Source: an uncultured Candidatus Saccharibacteria bacterium
GTDB taxonomy: Bacteria > Patescibacteriota > Doudnabacteria > UBA920
Direction: 5' to 3'
Assembly (NCBI GenBank): GCA_964474825.1
Contig: CAYYWQ010000001.1
Span: 1,033,606 to 1,097,605, forward strand
DNA length: 64,000 bases
Shown: positions 7,410 to 46,966 of the stretch, one piece after another
Layout: every line of letters begins with the position of its first letter
How positions within the stretch are numbered: position 1 is the stretch's first letter
Notes under the pieces: generated by a model
Database searches by the model: none
Told to the model about the DNA's origin: nothing
The model's input: the letters and a program-made list of their open reading frames with translations, nothing else
Translations under genes and position numbers: made by a program

Positions 7410-8495
7410 ATGAGAATAAAAAGCATAGTAATAAAAAACTTTCGCAACTATCCAAGTTTAGACATAGATATAAATAGTGATGTGGTGGTGTTAACCGGCC
7501 CCAACGCTGTTGGTAAGACTAACCTGCTAGAGTCGGTGTATTTTGCCTCGTTGTTTAAGTCTTTTAGGGACGACACCGAATTTATTTTCTTAAAAGACAG
7601 TTCTAATTTGGAACTAAAAATGCTGGTGGAAAAAGGCGATCAAACTTTCAGTTTTGAGGTTTTTTTGGAACGACGTGAAAAGATTTACGCCAATTTTTTA
7701 CTGGACGGAGTAAAAAAGAAAAGAAGGGAAGCACAGGGTTTTATTAGTGTGGTAATTTTTGACCCTACTGACGTGGATATGTTTAGTAAGACTCCAGAAG
7801 CCAGGAGAAAATATTTAAACATGGTTTTGTCCCAAAAGAGGATAGATTACCTGGACGCACTTGTAAACTATAAAAAAGTTTTATTCCAGAAAAACAAGTT
7901 GCTTCAAGATATAAAACAAGGACGTGGGAACCGAGAAGAGCTTGAGTCATGGAACGAACAATTGGTTAGTTTTGGCAGTCTAATAATGTACGAGAGGAAA
8001 AAATTTGTAAATTTTTTGAATAATAGTATTGCAGAAATTTATTCCAGCATTTCCGGGTTCCACCGCCCTGTTGAAGTGGCTTTGGAGAGCCTGCCGGGTG
8101 ACAGTTTTGAGGAATTGGCAGAAAACTTCCGATTAAAACTTGCGGCCGTAGGTCAAAAAGAACAGCTGGTTGGTATGTGTTTGGCTGGACCTCATCGGGA
8201 CGACTTCTTTTTAAAAAGCGAAGGCTTGTATTTGTCCCCGTTTTCCTCCCGGGGTGAGTTACGCAGCCAAATTTTGTCCTTAAAAATTTTAGAACTGGAA
8301 TATTTAAGTAAAGACGGAGAAAAGCCGATTTTGCTACTAGATGACGTGCTGAGCGAATTAGATGATACCCGGAGAACGTTCCTGCTCAAATATTTACAAG
8401 GAAAATTTCAAACCTTTATTACCACCACTCACCCGCTGGAAATGCCTGCCCAGCACATTACCTTAACACCTGCAGTAGAAGAAGAGGCAAAGTAG
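7410..8495 (+). CDS. recF: DNA replication and repair protein RecF
   Basis: It has the Walker A VLTGPNAVGKTNLLESVYF and the SMC-like signature region LLLDDVLSELDDTRR. It sits after dnaN. Confidence 0.9.
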   Translation: MRIKSIVIKNFRNYPSLDIDINSDVVVLTGPNAVGKTNLLESVYFASLFKSFRDDTEFIFLKDSSNLELKMLVEKGDQTFSFEVFLERREKIYANFLLDGVKKKRREAQGFISVVIFDPTDVDMFSKTPEARRKYLNMVLSQKRIDYLDALVNYKKVLFQKNKLLQDIKQGRGNREELESWNEQLVSFGSLIMYERKKFVNFLNNSIAEIYSSISGFHRPVEVALESLPGDSFEELAENFRLKLAAVGQKEQLVGMCLAGPHRDDFFLKSEGLYLSPFSSRGELRSQILSLKILELEYLSKDGEKPILLLDDVLSELDDTRRTFLLKYLQGKFQTFITTTHPLEMPAQHITLTPAVEEEAK

Positions 8496-8676
8496 AATTT
8501 ACACACCGCCGCCTTTTGGGCTGGCGGAGCCAGTCCCTTTAGGCGGCTCTGGCCAATTTCTTCGTTATTTTCTTCCGGTGTTTGTCACCGTAAGTAAATT
8601 ACGTCTCCAAGCATCCTCAGAAAATGCCTCGAACTTGACTCAGTGTTTAAATTCTAACTATCTATAAATAAAAATT

Positions 8677-8988
8677 ATGTCGCCAAAACCAAAACAGGGT
8701 TTTACATCAATCCAAAAAGTTCTGCCAAACAAACTAAAACAATACAAATTAGAAGCCGCGTTCTATAAACACCAGGCCATAAAACACTGGAACGAAGCTG
8801 CAGGAAAATTCATTAACCAAGCTAAAGACCAAACAAAGGCAATAGATTTAAAAAACGGAATTTTAGTAGTCGCCTGTTTGTCCAAAGAGTTGGCTTATGA
8901 AATAAGAATGATTGTAGAAAGAATAGTTTACGAAATAAACAAACTCATAGGAAAATCTGTGGTGTTTGGGATACATATGGAAATATAA
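8677..8988 (+). CDS. DUF721 / DciA-like small protein (candidate helicase-loading factor)
   Basis: A 103-aa protein with the pattern W..aaG..i...t...d.knGiLvV.c.s...a.El......i...iN...G...V..I, typical of DUF721. It sits at the ori-proximal position after recF, where DUF721/DciA genes are commonly found. Confidence 0.5.
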   Translation: MSPKPKQGFTSIQKVLPNKLKQYKLEAAFYKHQAIKHWNEAAGKFINQAKDQTKAIDLKNGILVVACLSKELAYEIRMIVERIVYEINKLIGKSVVFGIHMEI

Positions 8989-9019
8989 AAAAACACCCCT
9001 AGTCAGGGGTGTTTTTTTA
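8986..9019. terminator. Bidirectional intrinsic terminator (acacccct-agtc-aggggtgt + T7)
   Basis: A perfect GC-rich hairpin flanked by A- and T-runs sits between convergent genes. Confidence 0.5.
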
Positions 9020-9469
9020 TATTTTTTCTTTAGCTTTTTTTACCAGCTCGCTCGAGCTTTGTATTTTACCGCTTTTACCAACATTGAAAACTAATTCTAT
9101 TCCCAGTTTTTGGCAGAGGGCTTGCTCGGGGTTTAAGGAAGATGTTGTGGTGTCGGCATCTTTTTTGTCACGGTCCCCGCCGTTGGCGAAAATGTCGGGC
9201 TTTAGGGTTTCCAGTTCCGCGCAGACTGACATGTCGGTAGGGTTTTCCTGGTGGCCTGTAATTACAACCTCGTCTACGTAGCGGATTGCCTCCACAATGG
9301 CTTTTCGCTCGTCCTGGTTCATAAAGACAAAGCCTTTTTTCTTGTTCAGCCAGTTGTCGTTGTTTATAATTACAACTAATTTGTCGCCGAGTTGTTTGGC
9401 TTCCTGCATCATTTCTACGTGGCCAACATGGATTGGGTCAAACCCTCCGGAAATCGCTACGGTTTTCAT
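9017..9469 (-). CDS. Cytidylyltransferase-like nucleotidyltransferase (HxGH family; RfaE domain II / TagD-like)
   Basis: It has the N-terminal motif GGFDPIHVGHVEMMQEAKQLG, which is the (T/H)xGH signature of the nucleotidylyltransferase alpha/beta phosphodiesterase superfamily. At about 150 aa its size fits adenylyl/cytidylyltransferases. Confidence 0.6.
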   Translation of the reverse strand: MKTVAISGGFDPIHVGHVEMMQEAKQLGDKLVVIINNDNWLNKKKGFVFMNQDERKAIVEAIRYVDEVVITGHQENPTDMSVCAELETLKPDIFANGGDRDKKDADTTTSSLNPEQALCQKLGIELVFNVGKSGKIQSSSELVKKAKEKI

Positions 9470-17668: not shown

Positions 17669-17700
17669 AAGAGTAATAAAGTTCGTAAAGTTAAAAAGTA

Positions 17701-17727
17701 AAAACCGCTTGTTTAGGCGGTTTTTTT
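17701..17727 (+). terminator. Intrinsic terminator after the GspE/PilB gene
   Basis: aaaaccgcttgtttaggcggttttttt: a hairpin followed by T7. Confidence 0.5.
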
Positions 17728-17738
17728 AATTGGGAGGG

Positions 17739-17767
17739 TTGACAATTAGATTGAAATAATGTATAAT
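17739..17767 (+). promoter_or_regulatory. Perfect sigma70 consensus promoter (TTGACA-N17-tgTATAAT)
   Basis: TTGACA is at 17739-17744, the spacer is exactly 17 nt, and TATAAT is at 17762-17767 preceded by TG. It points into the GC-rich gene at 17993. Confidence 0.55.
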
Positions 17768-17992
17768 TGCGGGTCATAATCCAAAATTGTGGGTTGTGCA
17801 TTTTTTGGTCTTTAAAAGTCTTTAGGAGGATTTTTTAAGGACCCTGAACCAGTCAGCGAAAGCTTCCGGTTTAGGGCAAGGAAGAAATTATATTCCCTGG
17901 GCAGGTTTGGCTATTATTTTAGTACCCAATCCCGCCCAGGGAACAGTCGCGAAGTTCCTTGGTTGTTGTTATCTCACGTTCAAAGGATCCAG

Positions 17993-29674: not shown

Positions 29675-31765
29675 TTATTTCTTTCCTTGCAAATGTTTTA
29701 TCTTTTTTATTTCTTCTATTCTGTCGCGGAGGCGGGCAGCGAGTTCAAATTCCAGGTTTTGGGCGGCTAAGTCCATTTGTTCTTCTAGCTCGCTTACGTA
29801 GAATTTTAATTCTTCCGGAGTCATTTTGGAGGAATCTACCTGGCGTTCTTTTTCGTCTTCTATTTCTTTATGACTACCGGCAAGGCGTGAGTCGGCTATG
29901 GCTTTTTGAATACTTTGGGGGGTTATGCCGTGTTTGGTGTTGTAAATTTCCTGAAGTTTTCTGCGCCTATTTGTCTCATCTATCGCTCGTTTCATTGAGC
30001 CGGTAATTTTGTCCGCGTACATTACCACATGGCCTTTAAGGTGCCTGGCGGCGCGGCCCATCATTTGCATAAAGAAAGTCTCGCTGCGTAAAAAACCTTC
30101 TTTGTCGGCATCTAAAATTGCCACCAAAGAAACTTCTGGTAAATCTAATCCTTCCCTAAGCAGGTTAATGCCAACTAGTACATCGTAAATACCTAGGCGT
30201 AAATCGCGTAATATTTCCAAGCGTTCAAATGTGTCTACATCAGAATGCAAATACTGAACTTTAACCCCGTCTTCTTTTAAGTATTCGGTAAGTTCCTCAG
30301 CCATGCGTTTGGTTAGGGTTGCCACTAACACGCGCTGATGTTGCCCAACTCTTTCTTTAATTTGCTCTATTAAATCATCCACCTGGTTTTTAATGGGCTT
30401 TATTTCTATGCTTGGGTCTAAAAGGCCTGTGGGTCGAATAATTTGTTCTACAATTGTGGGAGGTTTTAACTCCTTTAGTTTTGGCCGCGCGTCTATAATG
30501 CTTTGTTCTTCTTCGGTGCGCTTGGATTTAGAAATAAATTTAATGTCTTTTTGGGTCAGGCTTCTTTCTATTTCAAATTCCGCTGGGGTGGCCGAAACAA
30601 ACACGGCTTGGGTAATTTTTTTCTCAAATTCTGTAAATTTTAATGGGCGATTGTCTAAAGCACTGGGCAGTCTAAAGCCGTAATCTACTAAGGTTGTTTT
30701 TCTGCTTTTATCTCCTTCGTACATAGCGCCAATTTGGGGGATGCTCTGGTGGGACTCGTCTATAAATAGCAGGAAGTCGTCCGGGAAATAATCTATTAGC
30801 GTAGAAGGTGGATCGCCGGCATTTCGGCCGTCTAAGTGCCTGGAATAGTTTTCTATACCCGCAACAAAGCCGGTGTTGGTGAGCATTTCCAAGTCAAAGT
30901 TGGTTCTTTGTTCCAGTCTCTGGGCTTCTAAAAGCTTCCCTTCTTTTTTAAATTCTTTGAGTCTTTCAGCAAGCTCCTCGCGTACTTTTTCCATGGCTTC
31001 TTTTAATTGCTCCTCAGGAGCAACAAAATGCTTGGCAGGGAAAATTGTGAATTCTTCTAAGGTTTCCAGTTTATGTCCGCTGACTGCGTCCAGGCGTTCT
31101 ATTTTTTCCAACTCGTCGCCATTAAAATCCATGCGGATTATTGTGTCTTCGGAAGACAGGATAATTTCTAACACATCTCCTTTGGCTCGGAAGCTTCCGC
31201 GTTCAAGTTCTAGGTCGTTCCTATGGAACTGCAAATCTGTAAGCCTTCTTAAAAGCTTGTCGCGTTTAAAGCTTTCTCCCCTTTTTATTTTAAGGGAAAG
31301 CTCCAAATAGTTGGCCGGATTGCCTAAACCGTAAATGCAGGAAACACTGGCTACAATCAACACATCTTTTCTAGAAAGTAGCGACTGGGTAGCAGCGTTA
31401 CGAAGCCTGTCTATCTCTTCGTTAATTTGCGTGTCTTTCTCTATGTATGTGTCTGTGCGGGGAATATAGGCTTCCGGCTGGTAGTAGTCGTAGTAGGAAA
31501 CAAAATAGTGAATGGCATTGTCCGGGAAAAATTCCTGGAATTCCGCGGCCAGTTGCGCGGCTAAAGTTTTGTTGTGGCTAATGATTAAAGTAGGTTTTTG
31601 AAAATGCTGAACCACATTGGCCATAGTAAAAGTCTTGCCGCTTCCGGTAACGCCAAGTAAAGTTTGGTATCTGCGTCCGGCTTCTATAGACTTAATTAAG
31701 CCCGCAATTGCAGCGGGTTGGTCGCCAGCTGGTTTAAATTTAGATTGTAATTTAAATTTACTCAT
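29675..31765 (-). CDS. uvrB: Excinuclease ABC subunit B
   Basis: It has the Walker [10 protein letters not shown], helicase motifs, a beta-hairpin region, and the C-terminal UVR domain [22 protein letters not shown]. Confidence 0.95.
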
Positions 31766-31811
31766 AAAATATATAAAGAGAATACGACTTATATCATAAC
31801 ATCATAGACGC

Positions 31812-31850
31812 ACAAAAAAAAGTGCCGAACGGTGGATCAAACCGTTCGGC
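31812..31850 (-). terminator. Intrinsic terminator on the - strand (gccgaacgg-tttgatcca-ccgttcggc + T8)
   Basis: A perfect 9-bp hairpin is followed on the - strand by an 8-T run, 45 nt upstream of the uvrB start. It ends a - strand transcript coming from the 31.9-32.4 kb region. Confidence 0.5.
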
Positions 31851-31859
31851 GTAGGCCAT

Positions 31860-32420
31860 CTCGCATAAGGATGGCTAAAAAGGAGTGGCCCAATAGGGCC
31901 ATGGAGGAGCCAGTGGAGGCCAGAGGATTATGTGGGGGATCCTCACGAAATGGGGCAAAAGATTTTTTTCATCACTCACCAACCCAGGAAAGTGATTACT
32001 CATCTCTAGTCTCAGTTCCGTATGACCTCCGGACAGATACTATGCGGATTGGTGTGCAGGCACCATTCGGTACAGTAACTGCTTTTCAGGTTATGATGAA
32101 CGCGAGGCTGCGTTCCTCAAGCCTGATATCCCTTCTTTGAATTATTTGTGAGCGGACGCTCTTGCAAGCGCCCGCTCCAAATCCGGTTGCAGAATGTGCC
32201 TCATTCCATCCTGCTATCCTGTGGAGTCTCGAGCCACAAGAAACCGGAAAACTTTTTGGTGCCGGACGACTGTAGAGTTCTTCCTCGTACAACCTTAGGA
32301 AGGTCTCTAGTTTGCCGTCCGGCGTGTTAAGCCGGGCTTGGGTGGTCGCGCAACCACCATATTCTGCCTCGGAGGTGGCAGAAAAGACCCGGCTTGTCGG
32401 AGTTAGACCATTTTTGCATT
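31860..32420 (-). ncRNA. Candidate structured non-coding RNA; identity unresolved (RNase P RNA, tmRNA or other)
   Basis: The region is GC-richer than the flanks and densely self-complementary. It contains only short, mutually overlapping ORFs with poor composition. It carries an RNase-P-P4-like AGACCCGGCTTGTCGG (+ strand, about 32385) and ends in the - strand terminator. The strand is uncertain. Confidence 0.3.
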
Positions 32421-32565
32421 TGCCGGCCGCTTTGTCAATGGTGGGTATTGGTGTTAAAATATTATAAGCTAATCAGTAAATCAGCTGATCAGTTAATTAG
32501 TAGAGGGATCCAGTTATGTAGTGCTGATCCGCTGATTAGCTGACATACTGATGCGTTTTCCCTAT

Positions 32566-33123
32566 ATGATTGCTTATTTAAAAGGAACAATTTTAGAAAA
32601 AGGATTAACATATCTCATTGTTTTAAATGGAGGCATGGGTTATAAGGTTTTTGTAACGCCTGAGAATTTGGAAAAAAAGATTGGCGACGAAGTTTCCATG
32701 TTTACCTACCATAAAGTCTCGGACGACGGACAGAGTTTGTTTGGCTTGCCGGATTTTTCTACGCTGCAGTTTTTTGAAATGTTAATTACTGTTTCCGGAG
32801 TTGGCCCTAAGGTTGCACTGGCGATTTTATCTGCGGCACGCGTAGACGCGGTAAAGTCCGCCATTGCCAACCAGGACGCCGGAGCGTTTACAAGAATTGC
32901 CGGTGTGGGAACAAAAACGGCGGAAAAAATTATAGTTGAGTTAAAATCTAAAGTTGGGGTTTTGGGGACAGATAATCAGCAATCTAATAATGACGTGTTC
33001 GACGCATTGTTGGCTTTAGGTTATGGCCAGAAGGAAGTTCGCGAAGTAGTAAGTAAATTAGACGGCAAACTTTCTCAGCAAGAACAAATTAGGGAAGCGT
33101 TAAAAATACTGGGAAAGCATTAA
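32566..33123 (+). CDS. ruvA: Holliday junction DNA helicase RuvA
   Basis: MIAYLKGTI... is the canonical RuvA N-terminus, so the true start is probably the internal Met at 32566. It has OB domain I, a helix-hairpin-helix domain II (GVGPKVALAIL) and a C-terminal domain III. Confidence 0.85.
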   Translation: MIAYLKGTILEKGLTYLIVLNGGMGYKVFVTPENLEKKIGDEVSMFTYHKVSDDGQSLFGLPDFSTLQFFEMLITVSGVGPKVALAILSAARVDAVKSAIANQDAGAFTRIAGVGTKTAEKIIVELKSKVGVLGTDNQQSNNDVFDALLALGYGQKEVREVVSKLDGKLSQQEQIREALKILGKH

Positions 33124-33127
33124 ATTA

Positions 33128-34183
33128 ATGAAGTTAGTTGAATTAACATCTTCAGATAAAGAACAATACAACCGCTTTGTTGCCTCGCAGCAAGCGGGTA
33201 GTTTTTTGCAGGCTTGGGAATGGGGAGAGTGGCAGGTTCGCCTTGGACGAACTGTTAGCAGATTTAAGATTTCAGATGACAGTGGGAATCAGGCCGGATC
33301 TATCCAGCTAATTAAAATGCCCTTGCCGTTTGGGAAGTATTATTTATACGCGCCATATGGACCGGTTGTAAGTGGGCAGTGGGCAGTGGGCAGTGGTCAG
33401 TTGTTAGACCAATTAAAACAGAAATTTCCGGAAGCAATATTCATTCGCCTTGAGCCAAAAACCTCTTTTCTATCCACTACTCACTATCCAGTACTCACTA
33501 AGTCCGCCAACATTCAACCCACAAAAACTTTAGTTTTGGATTTAGCCAAGACTGAGGAGCAGTTACTTGCAGAAATGCACCCAAAGACACGCTACAACAT
33601 TAAGTTGGCGCAAAGGCATAACGTAGAAGTCAGTTGCGATTTAATGGTAGTTCCCGGATATGGTTTGTATTTAAAGGAAGCGCTGGATTTGTTAGTACAA
33701 ACTGCCGGAAGGCAAAGCTTTCAAACTTTTCCGCGAAGTTATTATGAACAGCTTTTAAACTTCTTCGCACTTCACAATTCAAATGGTGATGTAAAACTTT
33801 ATGTTTATAAAGCGTTAAAAGACAAAGAGCTTTTGGTAACCGCGGTTATGGTAGACTTTGGGGGAACAAGGACTTATTTGTTTGGCGGCAGCAGCCCGCA
33901 CCATAGGGAAGTTATGGCGCCGTACGCGCTACACTGGCAGGCAATTTTAGATGCCAAAAATTTAGGATTAAAACTTTATGATTTCTGGGGAATAGAAACT
34001 AGCTCTGGCGACACTCCTGGGTTTGTTAGGTTTAAAATGGGTTTTGGGGGAGAGGAACTGGTTTATGCAGGCGCATACGATATTAGCAACAAGAAATTGT
34101 GGTATCATGGCTACAAGGGATTGCGCGGAATTAATAGGTCTTTATTACATATCAAAAATTTTACCTCCAAGACTTATAAATAA
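33128..34183 (+). CDS. FemAB-family peptidoglycan interpeptide-bridge aminoacyltransferase
   Basis: It has the conserved KTRYNIKLAQRHNVEV block and a two-GNAT-like-domain layout of about 350 aa. Confidence 0.7.
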   Translation: MKLVELTSSDKEQYNRFVASQQAGSFLQAWEWGEWQVRLGRTVSRFKISDDSGNQAGSIQLIKMPLPFGKYYLYAPYGPVVSGQWAVGSGQLLDQLKQKFPEAIFIRLEPKTSFLSTTHYPVLTKSANIQPTKTLVLDLAKTEEQLLAEMHPKTRYNIKLAQRHNVEVSCDLMVVPGYGLYLKEALDLLVQTAGRQSFQTFPRSYYEQLLNFFALHNSNGDVKLYVYKALKDKELLVTAVMVDFGGTRTYLFGGSSPHHREVMAPYALHWQAILDAKNLGLKLYDFWGIETSSGDTPGFVRFKMGFGGEELVYAGAYDISNKKLWYHGYKGLRGINRSLLHIKNFTSKTYK

Positions 34184-38288: not shown

Positions 38289-40601
38289 ATGAATACAGAA
38301 TTTAATCCCATTGAGAAATATGGGCCAACTACTTTACCGGAGTCAAAATCAGAGCATGAACTGCGGGAATCAAAGGCAGAAGTTTTGGAATTAGGGAAAA
38401 GATTTATTCAAGGACGGGATTGGAAAGCACTGGAAGATTTAGTTAGATCTTTGCCGGACAATGATTTTCTTGTCACTCAAACTACTTTGTTACAGGAGTT
38501 AAATGATGGTTTATTTGATGTTCAACTGAAGCCTGGACCTGCCAATAGATATTTTGAAGAAGGGGACGGTTGGGAAACTTTACGCTGCGCCACAGAAATT
38601 ATAAGGAAAATGGGAAATAATCCCAGCTCATCCAAATATTTGCATAAGGTTATGGAGATGGACAGGATTCCTAAGGTTGTTTTAAAAGAAGGGCAAGCTG
38701 CCATTACTAATGATATAAATGCAGGAGCTGATTTAGATATTGATGTTCGTTGGTTTTATTATAGGGCATTGACAGAGGCTTTTTTAAAATTTCCAGACGA
38801 TCGAGCCCTGCTCGCGGTAAAGCAAATTTTAAATAAGATTGACCAGCAGGTACTTGAAAATACCAGACATTATTACTACCCTGAGGGAAAAGATATAACA
38901 GGGAGTTTTGAAGAAACGCCACAGGAGTTGTTTGACTATCAGTTCAAGGCTGCGGAATCTAATATGCCCAGTGACTTAATTGCAGGCATATCCGCCGGTG
39001 ATATGGCAGTTGGCACTAAGTCTTTTATAATAAAAAAATTAGGGGGAGCCAAACAGCCGGAATCACTTCCTATGTTTTTAGAAGTGATAAAGCTCGAAGG
39101 CTCAGATGCCCCAATATATTTTCATCCTATATTGGAGGCTCTTAGGCAATTGGACCAAAATTTGGTGGCGGACAAGCTCTTAAATTTGGTTAAGAGCGGA
39201 AACCCATTTGAAAAAAGAAGCGCATTATGGCTGCTATATAGGTTGGAAATTGGACAAGTTGGGGTTTCTGAAGAAGGCGTACATTATTTGCATAAAGTTT
39301 ATGACGTGGGAAACTATAATAATCCTAATTATTATGTACAACGCTTAACTTCCGGTGGGCAGGTTGGTATTTTTTCCCAAGAGGGAAAATTTGAGAAATA
39401 TTTTAATTTGGAGGGATTGGGCAGTGAAGAACAGCGCATTAGAGCTAAATTGTTGGACATTACCTACGCTACTTTGTTTGGGCATCACGCTAAGGAGAAG
39501 CCGGAAGAACGCAAACAAAGAACAAAGTTATTAGAGGAGTTTCAGTTAAAATATTTTGAATTTTTACAACACGATTTTTTCAATGATCTTCCAGTAAAGT
39601 TTTCTGATTTAACTTTTCCGGAACAAGGGCAGTTTTTAAAATTTTATTCTGACTCTGAGGAGTCAGAAAGAGCGAGACTGAAAGATTATTGTAAGAAGTT
39701 TGGGCTAACTGGGTTTCGTTCATTAATGTCTTTGGATTATGATGGGGGTGTCGCCGCCAAGCTTTTAGACATGGCCGAAAGTTTGCCTCAGTCACGAATG
39801 CAGATGATTTTAGATAAATATGTGGCAATAGTTTCCGCAGCTGATACCGCGGAAATGGCACTTTGGGAAAACTTACCTCAATCCGCAAATGCTTCTCCAG
39901 ATTTAAAAGAACGGGTAAGAGAATTTATTATGGAAAAAGGTAGTAGATTTTTAAGGCATTTAGGGCTGGACGAATCTGAGGCATTTTCACACAAAGACAC
40001 AATCATGTATTTAAGTGGAATTCGTACAGAAGTAATGATTTATGCCGCTTTATTTAAAGAACTTTCTAAAATTAACAAACTTTCTATAACTGACATTAAA
40101 GACGCTAGGTTTGACATCGTCCCAGCTAAATTACTTTCTGAAGATGATAAAAAACAGATGTTGGAAATTTTTGCAAATAATAGAGACGAGAGCTATCCTT
40201 TAAAGTTGAGAGAAGCGACGTTAAGAAGTTTTGAGCAAACTTTACAAGCAGAAGGGCCGGTTTTTAGAGTGCTAAAGTACAAAGGAAGTATTGTGTCGTT
40301 TTTCCACGCTCAACCACAAGGAGAGGATGCTATTTATGTTGGATCTTTGAATTTGAGTCCTGACGCCCAAGACAGCTCTATTGCAGTTAGTATGGTAGTT
40401 GCGGCTTTGGAACAGGCCGGGACAGAAAAAAATATAACAGCTAAGGTTTGGTCTAAAAATGAAAAACTTTATAAATTTTATAAGCGCTATCTACATTTTC
40501 AAGATGATGGGGTAGAAGAGAATTATGAAGGAACGGGGGAAAATTATTACAAGCTAAAAAAACCAAAGCAGGAAGAATCTACTTTTGCAGTAGCGGCTTA
40601 A
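38289..40601 (+). CDS. Large hypothetical protein
   Basis: A long ORF with coding-like composition. The likely start is MNTEFNPIEK at 38289; the track start at 38232 overlaps the divergent ABC gene. I recognised no motif. Confidence 0.5.
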   Translation: MNTEFNPIEKYGPTTLPESKSEHELRESKAEVLELGKRFIQGRDWKALEDLVRSLPDNDFLVTQTTLLQELNDGLFDVQLKPGPANRYFEEGDGWETLRCATEIIRKMGNNPSSSKYLHKVMEMDRIPKVVLKEGQAAITNDINAGADLDIDVRWFYYRALTEAFLKFPDDRALLAVKQILNKIDQQVLENTRHYYYPEGKDITGSFEETPQELFDYQFKAAESNMPSDLIAGISAGDMAVGTKSFIIKKLGGAKQPESLPMFLEVIKLEGSDAPIYFHPILEALRQLDQNLVADKLLNLVKSGNPFEKRSALWLLYRLEIGQVGVSEEGVHYLHKVYDVGNYNNPNYYVQRLTSGGQVGIFSQEGKFEKYFNLEGLGSEEQRIRAKLLDITYATLFGHHAKEKPEERKQRTKLLEEFQLKYFEFLQHDFFNDLPVKFSDLTFPEQGQFLKFYSDSEESERARLKDYCKKFGLTGFRSLMSLDYDGGVAAKLLDMAESLPQSRMQMILDKYVAIVSAADTAEMALWENLPQSANASPDLKERVREFIMEKGSRFLRHLGLDESEAFSHKDTIMYLSGIRTEVMIYAALFKELSKINKLSITDIKDARFDIVPAKLLSEDDKKQMLEIFANNRDESYPLKLREATLRSFEQTLQAEGPVFRVLKYKGSIVSFFHAQPQGEDAIYVGSLNLSPDAQDSSIAVSMVVAALEQAGTEKNITAKVWSKNEKLYKFYKRYLHFQDDGVEENYEGTGENYYKLKKPKQEESTFAVAA

Positions 40602-41380
40602 ACAGCTTTTGCATTTTGCCACAGTGCTTCAAATACAGTTTTGTGCATTTTGTAAATTGCAGGGTGTTCTATGGTCATACTGACAATTTTTCCGGCTTCC
40701 ATGCTAATGTAAGAAATCTTGCCGTCGTAAATGTACATTATGGTGGAAAAGGCCGCGGGCGCCGGTATAACGCGAACCTGGGTAACGTTGGGGTTAAAAG
40801 TTTTAGCGTGCTGCCGCACAAAAGCGGAGTCCACCATAATAATTTTTTTCTTTATGCCTTTAGTTGTCCGCGCTTCCGTAAAGTTTTTGTTAAGTTCAGG
40901 AAATTGTTTATTTAGCGCCTCGCTGTCTATGTAAGAATAAATTTCCGTAGCTGAAGTTAAAGAATCCTCCACGACCTGTTGTGCTCCGTCCAATCCTTCG
41001 AAAAATTTAATTGTTGGTTTGGTTGCCGCGAGTTGATAAAGACTTCTAAGTCCCGGTAAGGTTTTGCCCAATTCTTCCTCCGCCGTTGTAATGGCGGATT
41101 TTTGTTTAGCTAAAAGAAGTTCCAGGTGCTCTGGATGTTTGGCTATAAATTTGGTGGTGGTTTTTGGCAAGTCTTGTTTTTCTACTAATCCTTTGGCTAC
41201 TAAGCTGTCCAGGTGGTAGTAAGCGTTGCCGCGCTTTAACTTGGTGTGGAATAAAATTGGCTTCATGCTTTGCGGACCCAAGTTTAAAAGCAGCTCGTAG
41301 ATTTGGGCTTCGTTTTTGTTGAGGCCTAGTTTTTCCAGGAGGGGGATATAAGGGGATTGTTGTATTTGATTATTATCCAT
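40598..41380 (-). CDS. TrmB-family transcriptional regulator (N-terminal wHTH)
   Basis: The N-terminus KNEAQIYELLLNLGPQSMKPILFHTKLKRGNAYYHLDSLVAKGLVEK matches the TrmB winged-helix pattern. Confidence 0.55.
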   Translation of the reverse strand: MDNNQIQQSPYIPLLEKLGLNKNEAQIYELLLNLGPQSMKPILFHTKLKRGNAYYHLDSLVAKGLVEKQDLPKTTTKFIAKHPEHLELLLAKQKSAITTAEEELGKTLPGLRSLYQLAATKPTIKFFEGLDGAQQVVEDSLTSATEIYSYIDSEALNKQFPELNKNFTEARTTKGIKKKIIMVDSAFVRQHAKTFNPNVTQVRVIPAPAAFSTIMYIYDGKISYISMEAGKIVSMTIEHPAIYKMHKTVFEALWQNAKAV

Positions 41381-41500: not shown

Positions 41501-41529
41501 TTGACATTTTGTCAAATTTAGACTACAAT
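41501..41529 (+). promoter_or_regulatory. Near-consensus sigma70 promoter (TTGACA-N17-TACAAT) pointing into the GC-rich island
   Basis: TTGACA is at 41501-41506, the spacer is 17 nt, and TACAAT is at 41524-41529. Confidence 0.5.
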
Positions 41530-41536
41530 GCGTAGT

Positions 41537-43240
41537 TAACATAAAAACAGCAAAAAGCACCTTTTACAATATATATGACTTTCTGAGGAGAGAGTCGGCA
41601 ATAGGCGCCGAAAAGCCTGGTAAATTAAGTCTTTTTGTCGCAATAAGCGGCTAATTGGTTATCTCTCCCAAAGAAATAGCTTGTTAGCCGCTTTTTTGGT
41701 AGAAGGGGATTTGGAGAAGAATACACCACATATTTCTTCTTCAAGTCTCTCTCTATAAAGAGGAGAGAGCCTGCGCTTAAAAAGAGCAGGTAAAAAATTC
41801 TTTTAAAACCATTTGTCTTGCTCAAAGGTTGGAGTAAGGATTAGAAACCCTAAAACAACCCCGCTCCATGCTCAGCATGGAGAAAGTAGACTTTAGCTAG
41901 AGTAGGTAAGTTACAGTGTTAAGCGCTTCGGCTTACAGGAAGCCGCGGCCCTGACCGCTTACCTATGGACCTAGCAATGAGTGCACCCTTCATAACCCAA
42001 AAGGTTGTGAAGGGAACAGTCATTGTTATAAGTAGAATATAGAATCTAGAAGATAGAATTTAGGAAATAGGTGCGTGCGGAAATTTTTATCGCCTGTGGT
42101 AAATATTTCTGCCCTCGCTACTACAGGAGTAGTGAGGTAGCACCTTAAAATTTTCAAATAAGATTTTAATTTTTGCTTAAGTTCGTCTTAAGCGTATTAG
42201 ATTTTGTCGGCAGCGTTGAGCAGCAAAGCTATGTCTTTGCTTTTTTAAGCTGCCGACAAGCCATGCATCTTTTTGGCGCATGGCAGCAGAAAAGGAGGCG
42301 GATATCGTGGAATACCCGCCGGGCAAGCAATAAAATTGCCGGGGTACAGCGTGAACCCTATCCCAAATTCGCTCGACAACTTCTGTGGCCTTTGCAGAAG
42401 ATCGTATTGATAAGGCAACCGGCAAGCAATTCTTGCCAAAGGAGGGTGGAAATGAAAACTCCACCTGGAAATAGGGGTAACTGGAAGAGGCCCAAAAAAC
42501 CAGCAACCGGAAACCTAGGGTATTAGTTGTCCCTAAGTGGAAGGTAAAAACCCGTCGCCGACAACTAAATGTGCTGCAGGAGTAAGGTAAGACTAGTAGT
42601 TATATTAGTAGGCTTGGATAAGGGCGTATGATCCTGGACTGAGTTAAAAGTATAATGAAGTGCTTATCTGAAACTGCACACATGGCAAGGAAGAGTCCTC
42701 CCTCCAGGAGGTGAGCGAGCTTGGGATAGTATCTCCGGGCCGCCTGCCTGGAGAAACTGCTCTATACCCCGAGGATCCGATGCTTCATGATTTGGGGTGA
42801 ACTTCCAGACGCCCAGGCACTTTGTTTTAGGAGGTGTGTTATGTTGAAACTTCCGTTTTAGCCCGGTCTCTGGATCCGGGCGAAGCCTGCCGCAAGGTAG
42901 GAAAACCAGCAACCAACCTATAGCAACAGATAGCTATGGGAAGGTTTACCCTAGGCCGTGTCTGTATGTTTTGTTAAGTAGTTTACGGAAAGGCGGATGA
43001 TCTGGAACGTAAACGAAAGGCGAGGCATGGTCGTGTGGTCCCGTGCGGCAACGGGACAAGGAAGAAAGTCTCTCCGCGTCTGTGGAGAGGATGGGCGAGC
43101 TCGGGACACAATTCCGCGGCTCGGCCTGTCCGAGTCCGCGGGAGAATGCCCAGAATCTTTCAGACGCCCGAGCGTTTTTGTTGTAAAAATCAAAACCGCC
43201 CGCGGCGCCGGATGATGCGCCAAGGGCAAAGGAGCTTGTC
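41537..43240 (+). other. About 1.7-kb non-coding, hairpin-dense leader / candidate large structured RNA preceding the Ubl-conjugation operon
   Basis: There is no ORF with credible composition. I saw at least ten perfect 5-10-bp hairpins by eye. Two 26-nt direct repeats lie at 42803-42828 and 43158-43183. G+C rises sharply from about 41830 onward. Confidence 0.3.
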
Positions 43241-46183: not shown

Positions 46184-46966
46184 ATGCGGAGTTTCATTAA
46201 CGTCAGAATCGGCCGGCTCCCCGGTCGGATTTCGGAAATTGTGCTTAATGGCGACCGCACGGTCGCTACCGCGTTGATGACCGCCGGCCTGGACAGCGCT
46301 GGCTACGATATCCGGGTGCAGGGTGCACCCGCGAGCATGACAACCGGACTCAACGAGGGGGACATTGTCCTCCTCGTGAAGAAGATCAAGGGGAACGGCG
46401 GGATTGAGGGCGCAACCTTCGTTCACGTCGGCCGCGTCCCCGGACCCGGTCTTGTCCAGTTTGCACTGGATGAGCCCACGGTCTTCATGGCTTTGTCTGC
46501 CGCTGGTCTCAATCTGGGGCCGGATGAGGTGGTTTACCGCAACGACCAGCTTTCTTCCATCGGGGAACCGGTGGAAGACGGCGACAAGATCGTCGTCCGG
46601 CATCCGATGCCGGCGATGGTCGCGGCTTCGCCGGAATTGCCGTCCGGCTTGCACCAGACTGCGCCGGTAGTTTCTGCCACGTTCGATTTCTCGGCCGTGG
46701 TCGGCACCGACCCGGCCCAGCTCTGCTCCAGCGCGGAACGGCTGACCCGCGAAGCGGAGGAGCTCGAGGCGGGAGCTCGCGCCGCGCTCGCCAGCGCGGC
46801 CGAGAAGAAGGTTGCGGCCTCGGCCCATTGGGCCAAAGCCGCGGCTATCGAGACCGCCAACGAGGCGTTGGCAAATGCCAGCGCCCAGCTCGAAACCCTT
46901 GGGGTTATTCGCCCCAAGGGCGAAGGACGGTGGACTGATATCCGCCGCCTCTTCGGCCTCTCGTAG
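46184..46966 (+). CDS. Tandem beta-grasp (multi-ubiquitin-like) protein with an internal KGNGG and a C-terminal Ala-rich coiled coil
   Basis: Module 1 is INVRIGRLPGRISEIVLNGDRTVATALMTAGL...EGDIVLLVKKIKGNGG, with a diglycine at the module end. Module 2 is ...GPDEVVYRNDQLSSIGEPVEDGDKIVVRHP. The SD (aggag) favours the ATG at 46184 over the track start at 46154. Confidence 0.5.
   Translation: MRSFINVRIGRLPGRISEIVLNGDRTVATALMTAGLDSAGYDIRVQGAPASMTTGLNEGDIVLLVKKIKGNGGIEGATFVHVGRVPGPGLVQFALDEPTVFMALSAAGLNLGPDEVVYRNDQLSSIGEPVEDGDKIVVRHPMPAMVAASPELPSGLHQTAPVVSATFDFSAVVGTDPAQLCSSAERLTREAEELEAGARAALASAAEKKVAASAHWAKAAAIETANEALANASAQLETLGVIRPKGEGRWTDIRRLFGLS

Follow-up and report, generated by a model that had tools for sequence, protein, structure and literature searches.

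A candidate structured RNA between uvrB and ruvA in a Doudnabacteria genome, and the hypervariable slot in which it lies

What, if anything, does the long gap between uvrB and ruvA encode in an uncultured Candidatus Saccharibacteria bacterium that GTDB places in the Doudnabacteria? We analysed a window of 64,000 nucleotides (nt) of its genome (assembly GCA_964474825.1, contig CAYYWQ010000001.1, positions 1,033,606 to 1,097,605), in which this gap spans 31766-32550 and has the highest guanine plus cytosine (G+C) content of all long gaps. An earlier note, made by reading the letters, had singled out about 0.6 kb of it (31812-32420) as a candidate structured non-coding RNA and had wavered between the RNA of ribonuclease P (RNase P), transfer-messenger RNA (tmRNA) and a novel RNA. 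We consider it somewhat probable that the gap carries a real, separately transcribed structured non-coding RNA of ~589 nt, predicted on the minus strand and running towards uvrB; the idea of a structured RNA is thereby supported and sharpened, whereas the families named for it are not supported. The RNA is probably a new orphan, and the RNA slot that it occupies is hypervariable. No described RNA family includes it; its kind—a large structured non-coding RNA framed by promoter and terminator—is familiar. The more interesting result is the slot itself, which is conserved in position and hypervariable in content, and which in some relatives holds an RNA family, here called A-type, that is absent from Rfam.

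The segment is ORF-poor and strongly self-complementary, as the earlier reading had it, and lies between genes that Pfam confirms as uvrB and ruvA. Folding of 31812-32410 yields -252.4 kcal/mol (z -8.5) on the minus strand and -244.3 kcal/mol (z -6.3) on the plus strand, with 0 of 100 shuffles as stable. Windows of 120 nt on the minus strand reach z -3.6 to -5.9 at 31780-31940 and 32060-32420, against a mean of -0.56 (standard deviation 1.6) for control windows of that length elsewhere in the 64 kb; local values across 32060-32420 are more negative on the minus than on the plus strand, and 31900-32060 gives no significant local signal. Single 120-nt windows of the gap are not the extremes of the 64 kb; the unusual part is ~600 nt of contiguous structured non-coding sequence. 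In the minimum free energy (MFE) structure, the predicted RNA (~32403 to ~31815) forms two three-way junctions plus several long hairpins and has no helix joining its 5' and 3' ends. The elevated G+C is real (0.48-0.55 over 31800-32499, compared with a window mean of 0.44) and drops at both edges, to 0.38 (31600-31799) and 0.365 (32400-32599). A nested hairpin picked out by eye exists at ~32151-32178, with slightly different letters from those first given: GAGCGG-A-CGCT-CTTGCA-AGCG-C-CCGCTC.

A predicted transcription unit frames this fold on the minus strand (Table 1). Its promoter stands back to back with that of ruvA; transcription would start ~7 nt past the -10 box (~32403) and end within the U8 tract (~31815) of the strong intrinsic terminator, which had been recognized correctly at the outset, with its 10-bp stem. 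A second terminator-like site, the hairpin UGGCCCUAUUGGGCCA followed by CUCCUUUUUA, may act as an upstream terminator and give a shorter isoform of ~525 nt. On the plus strand of the gap, a consensus scan found neither promoter nor terminator for an RNA gene. An own promoter, an own intrinsic terminator and the lack of a coding frame, the generic marks of an independently transcribed bacterial non-coding RNA gene, are all present at the consensus level. Because wobble pairs are equal on both strands, assignment to the minus strand rests on promoter, terminator and comparative evidence, and is to that extent a prediction.

Could the gap instead code for a small orphan protein, either the 102-amino-acid (aa) plus-strand open reading frame (ORF) or minus-strand ORFs of 42-68 aa? 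The ORFs are there, and the NCBI record includes a 75-aa call of the plus-strand frame (P0121). However, as had been remarked, none is credible: the three (102, 68 and 60 aa) are short and overlap one another on different strands; five short ORFs of the gap gave no Pfam match; the 102-aa frame matched only itself among 5.8 billion proteins; none has a suitably placed ribosome-binding site or promoter; the plus-strand frame begins within the terminator, antisense to the promoter/terminator frame; and the Logan gene caller made no call in the gap. We regard a protein product as very improbable.

The known RNA families were searched with Rfam 15 (4227 families), at gathering thresholds across the whole window and at E<=10 over 31600-32700. 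The former search gave no match and the latter only chance matches: two of snoRNA type outside or across the region, and one ‘ctRNA’ that is the terminator itself. The cmscan and ARAGORN checks proposed in the earlier note came back empty, with no match at E<=10 to the RNase P, tmRNA, signal recognition particle (SRP) or 6S RNA models and with 0 transfer RNAs (tRNAs) and 0 tmRNAs in the window. That note had held that no cmscan match and no conserved structure would together speak against a structured RNA; one of the two was found, the missing match. Each candidate family was rejected in turn. For tmRNA, neither ARAGORN nor Rfam detected a tRNA-like acceptor/T-arm domain plus tag frame. An SRP-like string had been reported, and GTCCGGAGG does occur at 32026-32034 (minus strand), but GUCCGGAGG lies within an ordinary helix. 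For 6S RNA, 589 nt and a multi-junction fold are unlike a single ~180-nt hairpin with a central bubble. OLE, ROOL, GOLLD, HEARO, raiA and the other large non-coding RNAs of Rfam fare no better, as none of the 4227 families matched beyond chance.

Two plus-strand strings had been likened to RNase P RNA. Both exist: AGACCCGGCTTGTCGG at 32386-32401, compared with the 3' strand of helix P4, and ccaatagggcc at 31890-31900, compared with P5/P7. The P4-like AGACCCGGCTT, however, has as its partner AAGCCGGGC, ~50 nt distant, with which it closes a three-way junction locally in the folds of both strands; since AGACCCGGCUU is paired with AAGCCGGGC locally, it is not a pseudoknot strand. No distant conserved region I (CR-I) partner was found for this string, which resembles conserved region V (CR-V); by direct reading, the plus-strand AGGAAAGUGAUU and AGGAAAGTGATT are unable to pair with it. 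The region matches neither RF00010 nor RF00011, and it has no P4 between CR-I (GGAAAGUCC...) and CR-V (ACAGAAnCCGGCUUA) and no P1 joining its ends. A diverged RNase P, tmRNA, SRP or 6S RNA would have in its favour a size within the RNase P range, the strings that recall CR-V and P5/P7, and the fact that RNase P RNAs of the candidate phyla radiation may fall under Rfam thresholds (PMC8172020). Nevertheless, 25 of 35 such RNAs were detected at normal thresholds in that study (PMC8172020), and none of the four housekeeping RNAs was found in the ruvA-uvrB gap of 35 related loci (0/35; RNase P RNA at gathering thresholds); ARAGORN found no tmRNA in 23 related loci, and Rfam searches at E<=10 on the related RNAs of loci L030 and L126 were empty, with no RNase P match. 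The segment thus shares with bacterial RNase P RNA its length, high G+C, a terminator behind it and short CR-V/CR-I-like strings, and differs in having no model match, no P4 pseudoknot and no P1, in carrying the resemblance on the wrong strand (the one with neither promoter nor terminator) and in the absence of RNase P RNA from the relatives' slot. We consider a housekeeping RNA effectively refuted.

Comparison with relatives gives the locus its context. We collected 171 related loci (L numbers below) and ran blastn and nhmmer on 80 and then on all 171. A promoter block, ATTTTAACA..GTTGACAAAG-17-CATAnAAT-yTTTAC (in shorter form ATTTTAACA..TTGACAAAG-17-nAnAAT-yTTTAC), is conserved beside ruvA, back to back with its promoter, in dozens of Doudnabacteria loci. 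At the uvrB end, 36-75 nt ahead of the ATG, most close relatives show a strong terminator with a T-run, and behind it a conserved uvrB promoter block, T8-GTnnGCCGATGATGTTATGATATAAGTC. In the window's own gap read towards uvrB (WIN), positions 90-120 align with the first block and 716-765 with the second. The promoter block and uvrB lie within 1.7 kb of each other in 43 loci (duplicate contigs counted), with inserts of 0 nt (L110), 223 nt (three identical contigs) and 360-1045 nt (the rest); in the distant Doudnabacteria L040 and L041, the whole gap is only 82 nt. Several related gaps fold strongly (z -5 to -7), and that of L053 folds no better than chance. Bodies align only inside small groups, in mosaic fashion, and the window's body aligns with none; its shared 10-mers with 36 other slot RNAs are terminator-like words only. 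The slot can be described as a conserved frame of promoter, terminator and uvrB promoter, inside which the RNA body is almost wholly different from one lineage to the next; its occupants appear to be unrelated or diverged past recognition.

In seven of these loci (L006, L013, L015, L028, L107, L125 and L127), tRNA genes lie inside the promoter/terminator unit, all directed towards uvrB, an arrangement that fits a transcription unit for stable RNA. The tRNA-Trp gene of L127 stands behind an AGGAGGAAU motif, at the position of the A-type core domain, and L006 has at 427-506 an ARAGORN tRNA whose anticodon has four bases (aatt) and whose anticodon loop is enlarged; the Rfam tRNA model gives it 58.6 bits. 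In L110 (784-860), no insert separates the ruvA-side block (-35 TTGACA, 17 nt, TGTTATGAT) from uvrB, which it drives directly. Two histories would account for this: an ancestral uvrB promoter received slot RNAs between its -35 and -10 boxes, or L110 lost its insert.

The best-supported occupant is the A-type RNA, found by iterated nhmmer in 12 distinct loci (L001, L003, L010/L111, L084/L085, L089-L091, L093, L098, L101, L102, L119, L126 and L152) and measuring 376-528 nt from predicted start to terminator in the eight distinct members for which both ends were mapped. In an alignment of 10 sequences over a 134-position core, fitted to the model and thereby favouring structure, compensatory changes occur in 13 of 24 pairs, compared with a shuffle mean of 4.6 (0/500 shuffles as high), and 87.7% of cells are paired, compared with 31-48% when partners are slid. 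The covariance model of this core (R2; 134 positions, 24 pairs) gives its training members 83-122 bits towards uvrB, and its best reverse-strand match reaches 26 bits; true members as a whole score 36-122 bits. Despite the model-fitted alignment, we take the fold as real because of the slid controls and this strand bias. Signature motifs are UAGGAGGAAUUGGGC, AAAUCCG..CGGAUUU and CCCCAAGACCCCACCGGAUA / GACCCCACCGGAUA; a perfect Shine-Dalgarno-like UAGGAGGAAUU is present with no ORF behind it. By reading of the alignment, without a count, helix Pd varies as GGGGUC/GACCCC, UGGCC/GGCCA, GUGGGU/ACCCAC and GGGGAUC/GAUCCCC. The family is absent from Rfam 15, and the 14-mer AGGAGGAATTGGGC had at least 120 chance matches in viral contigs, none confirmed by R2.

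Is the window RNA a very diverged A-type member, with the function of that family? The two are alike in slot, orientation, promoter block, terminator and downstream uvrB promoter, comparable in size, strongly structured and non-coding; the window RNA, too, lies between the ruvA-side block and the terminator with the uvrB block, and runs towards uvrB. The best R2 match in a 2-kb search falls inside it, on the correct strand (32029-32139; 11.3 bits, E 0.012), and by direct reading AAUAAUUCAAAGAAGGGAUAUCAGGC recalls AGUAAUUAAAGAGGAAUUGGGC of L001. However, R2 gives five matches of 10.8-12.6 bits across the 64-kb window, which is noise level, and six comparable ones in nine other singleton loci (85 kb, filters off), none of them in the gaps; the chance of such a match landing in the 600-nt strand of the window RNA is ~0.02, suggestive and not significant. 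A match at noise level is likewise all that another model of the A-type core, R1, gives in the window. The iterated A-type profile finds nothing in the window RNA at E<=10, sequence similarity is lacking and the signature motifs are absent from WIN (no AGGAGG, no GGAGGAA, no enriched shared 10-mers). We rate membership as quite unlikely. Two of the noise-level matches, 8475-8569 and 17821-17942 (both minus strand), fall in the gaps 8496-8676 and 17669-17962; 17841-17960, in the second of these gaps, and 8921-9080, near the first, are among the strongest-folding sites of the window by G+C-corrected energy.

The sequence of the window RNA is otherwise an orphan. The closest UvrB relatives (<=86% identity) are Candidatus Doudnabacteria metagenome-assembled genomes; the window RuvA occurs on one NCBI contig and on two Logan contigs, one of which equals the window along its whole length while the other agrees with the RNA at 100%; the next-best RuvA is 78% identical, so that no close relative is present in the data. 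Six-frame tblastn of the segment against related loci, blastn against phage and plasmid collections and a search of viral contigs with two exact 18-22-mers gave nothing. Self-similarity revealed no second copy within the window, and no terminal inverted repeats surround the segment. Literature searches returned no report of Doudnabacteria non-coding RNAs, nor of a lineage-specific large non-coding RNA in bacteria of the candidate phyla radiation.

Such a sequence could be a non-functional remnant or a cluster of DNA-level palindromes, built up at a permissive intergenic hot spot from hairpin-forming repeats or from sequence of foreign or decayed origin, its promoter and terminator being leftovers or the property of neighbouring genes. 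Its orphan status, the mosaic and largely unalignable bodies in relatives, the strand-symmetric and nearly all Watson-Crick pairing and the unremarkable L053 gap would suit this explanation. Yet gene density is high (61 genes predicted in the 64-kb window, which leaves just 13 gaps of >=150 nt), and the persistence of idle DNA therefore seems unlikely; the segment has none of the second copies, terminal repeats or six-frame similarities just described; the promoter/terminator frame is conserved over many genera-level relatives; and the A-type occupant shows strand-specific covariation. We rate a remnant as unlikely.

We find it equally unlikely that the segment serves uvrB as a long 5' leader or as an insulator, in which the insert and terminator tune read-through or shield the uvrB promoter against transcription from the ruvA side, the upstream promoter served uvrB originally and no separate role falls to the RNA. 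The segment does lie directly upstream of uvrB in the same direction, the block of L110 drives uvrB without an insert, the gap of L040 and L041 is short, and the uvrB promoter shares its -35/UP region with the stem and U-tract of the terminator. Against this, a conserved extended -10 promoter comes right after the strong terminator (10 bp plus U8) and frees uvrB from any need of read-through; the hypervariable body is unlike that of sensor leaders, the sequence of which is normally conserved; and tRNA genes and a ~400-nt covarying RNA in the relatives' unit suggest that the RNA is the product. A stand-alone RNA is favoured because of the strong terminator with a separate uvrB promoter, the tRNAs and covarying RNA of relatives and the gene density of the window.

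For such a stand-alone RNA, we propose that a sigma-70-type promoter beside the ruvA promoter would start a ~589-nt minus-strand transcript, which would fold into a chain of hairpins with two three-way junctions and stop at the strong intrinsic terminator just before the extended -10 promoter of uvrB. It would be the local occupant of the ruvA-uvrB slot maintained by Doudnabacteria, with tRNA genes alongside in some genomes. Its likeliest role would be that of a stable trans-acting RNA, in which the fold and the exposed C/U-rich loops (CCUCC/CUCCUCC) do the work, by pairing with purine-rich sequence or by holding a protein, much as in multi-hairpin riboregulators. CCUCC occurs three times in 599 nt of the window RNA, with ~0.6 expected (an estimate), and CUCCUCC in the terminator loops of several relatives; together with the perfect AGGAGGAAU of A-type RNAs, these loops suggest purine/pyrimidine pairing of single strands, within the RNA or with targets. 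We infer that the RNA is made, is stable and acts on its own, and that its CCUCC loops have a role; the specific mechanism, a trans-acting riboregulator using C/U-rich loops, is speculative, and we give it a low probability.

Several points weigh against this proposal. The promoter and terminator calls are consensus matches only. Of the predicted pairs, 92% are Watson-Crick and G-U pairs number 15 versus 15 on the two strands; the fold alone therefore proves neither selection at the RNA level nor the strand. Among the 171 loci, blastn and nhmmer matched the segment only to contigs L081, all 2523 bases of which agree with the window, and L082, 100% identical to the 629-nt RNA query, so the window RNA has no homologue from which covariation could come. 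Most genes of the window have no Shine-Dalgarno sequence, which makes it less likely that anti-Shine-Dalgarno loops target ribosome-binding sites. Finally, the hypervariability of the slot could reflect weak constraint.

Many genes carry a TATAAT-like box 7-12 nt before the ATG; with the missing Shine-Dalgarno sequences, this suggests widespread leaderless or very short-leader mRNAs. The ruvA 5' untranslated region (UTR) contains, at 32469-32545 (plus strand), a long imperfect palindrome, GCTAATCAG...CTGATTAGC, with local z of about -4.5 on both strands. Pfam identifies the neighbours as a periplasmic binding protein, UvrB, RuvA, a FemAB-family protein and a Mur ligase. The gene 3' of ruvA (33128-34183, plus strand) is the FemAB-family gene, not ruvB, and the order ruvA-FemAB-Mur ligase recurs in relatives L083-L091. 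No transposase, reverse transcriptase or Cas partner gene is among the Pfam-annotated neighbours, and a guide or partner RNA of a mobile element (omega RNA, bridge RNA, retron msr-msd or tracrRNA) was rejected for want of an adjacent IscB/TnpB, IS110 recombinase, reverse transcriptase or Cas gene.

Table 1 Features of the uvrB-ruvA locus
Feature	Position	Strand	Basis and details
uvrB	29675-31765	-	Pfam
uvrB promoter and short leader	31766..31813	-	Extended -10 TGTTATGAT (TATGAT 31806..31801), directly past the U-tract; ATG at 31765 without Shine-Dalgarno sequence
Predicted transcript, ~589 nt	31814..32403	-	Promoter and terminator scan; fold z -8.5; no ORF with homologues
Main intrinsic terminator	31814..31850	-	Stem 31850..31824, 10 bp (7 G-C): GCCGAACGG-UUUGAUC-CACCGUUCGGC, then AC, U8 at 31821..31814
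C/U-rich anti-Shine-Dalgarno-like motifs	31876..31920	-	GGCCUCCAC, GGCUCCUCCAUGG, hairpin UGGCCCUAUUGGGCCA then CUCCUUUUUA; CCUCC at RNA nt 492, 504
Weaker second terminator-like site	31901..31886	-	Terminator scan
Purine-rich linker AAAGAAGGGAU, stem UCAGG/CCUGA, long hairpin	32029..32139	-	Sole part weakly resembling the A-type core
Second three-way junction (CCGGUU/AACCGG, two hairpins), then GAGCGG...CCGCUC hairpin	32148..32247	-	Fold; local z -4.4 to -5.8
Long irregular hairpin CCGGACGGCA...UGUCGUCCGG	32261..32323	-	MFE and centroid; local z -3.9 to -4.9 (-), -1.9 to -2.0 (+)
5' three-way junction	32329..32395	-	Stem AAGCCGGG/CCCGGCUU around two hairpins, the first with loop ACCUCCGA; MFE and centroid; CCUCC at RNA nt 36
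RNA promoter	32410..32438	-	-35 TTGACA (32438..32433), 17-nt spacer, extended -10 TGcAAAAAT (32418..32410); consensus scan 10/12 plus TG
ruvA promoter and 5' UTR	32432..32550	+	TTGTCA-17-TGtTAAAAT (32432-32460); outside the RNA
ruvA	32551-33123	+	Pfam

A second ORF-free region of ~700 nt lies at 41536-42250 (plus strand), with a strong promoter at 41501-41529 (TTGACA-17-TACAAT, 11/12) and a terminator at 42222-42241. Its fold (z -10.4, plus strand) is stronger than that of the uvrB-ruvA segment, and it has no real Rfam match at E<=10. It stands back to back with the minus-strand promoter of the gene 40598-41380, in the same layout as the uvrB-ruvA segment and with no sequence similarity to it, which speaks against such RNAs being rare in this genome. 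At 46761-46960, local G+C rises to 0.64-0.70 in a window of 44% G+C, and folding is predicted to be very stable on both strands.

Genomes of the candidate phyla radiation are ~1 Mb in size. A conserved frame with structured RNAs of 0.4-1 kb, one with solid covariation and no Rfam family, implies that scarce genome space is spent on RNAs; a second RNA of this layout at 41536-42250 would suggest that they are a regular feature of these tiny genomes. We entertain, tentatively, the possibility that the occupants of the slot (the window RNA and A-type, sometimes with tRNAs) are fast-evolving versions of one new class of 0.4-1 kb specific to this radiation. In the slot RNAs, sequence also turns over very fast while the promoter/terminator frame around it stays fixed. 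Annotation is spared a tempting mis-call: the segment is not rnpB, ssrA or ffs.

Two groups of known RNAs invite comparison. Riboregulators of the type of RNAIII from Staphylococcus aureus are ~0.5 kb long, with many hairpins and C/U-rich loops able to pair with purine-rich ribosome-binding regions. The window RNA differs in lacking homology and an embedded ORF and in belonging to an organism most genes of which have no Shine-Dalgarno sequence; it is similar in its ~0.5-kb length, multiple hairpins and C/U-rich loops, including those in or near the terminator. From OLE, ROOL, GOLLD and raiA it is set apart by the missing Rfam match, a different phylum, the lack of family-wide conservation and the absence of their characteristic partner genes. 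It resembles them in its length of hundreds of nucleotides, its ornate multi-helix fold, a G+C above that of its surroundings and its promoter/terminator bounds. ROOL and GOLLD are often located near tRNA genes, as are some occupants of the ruvA-uvrB slot. If functional, the slot RNAs would be new material for the discovery of RNA structure and function, comparable to OLE, ROOL and GOLLD.

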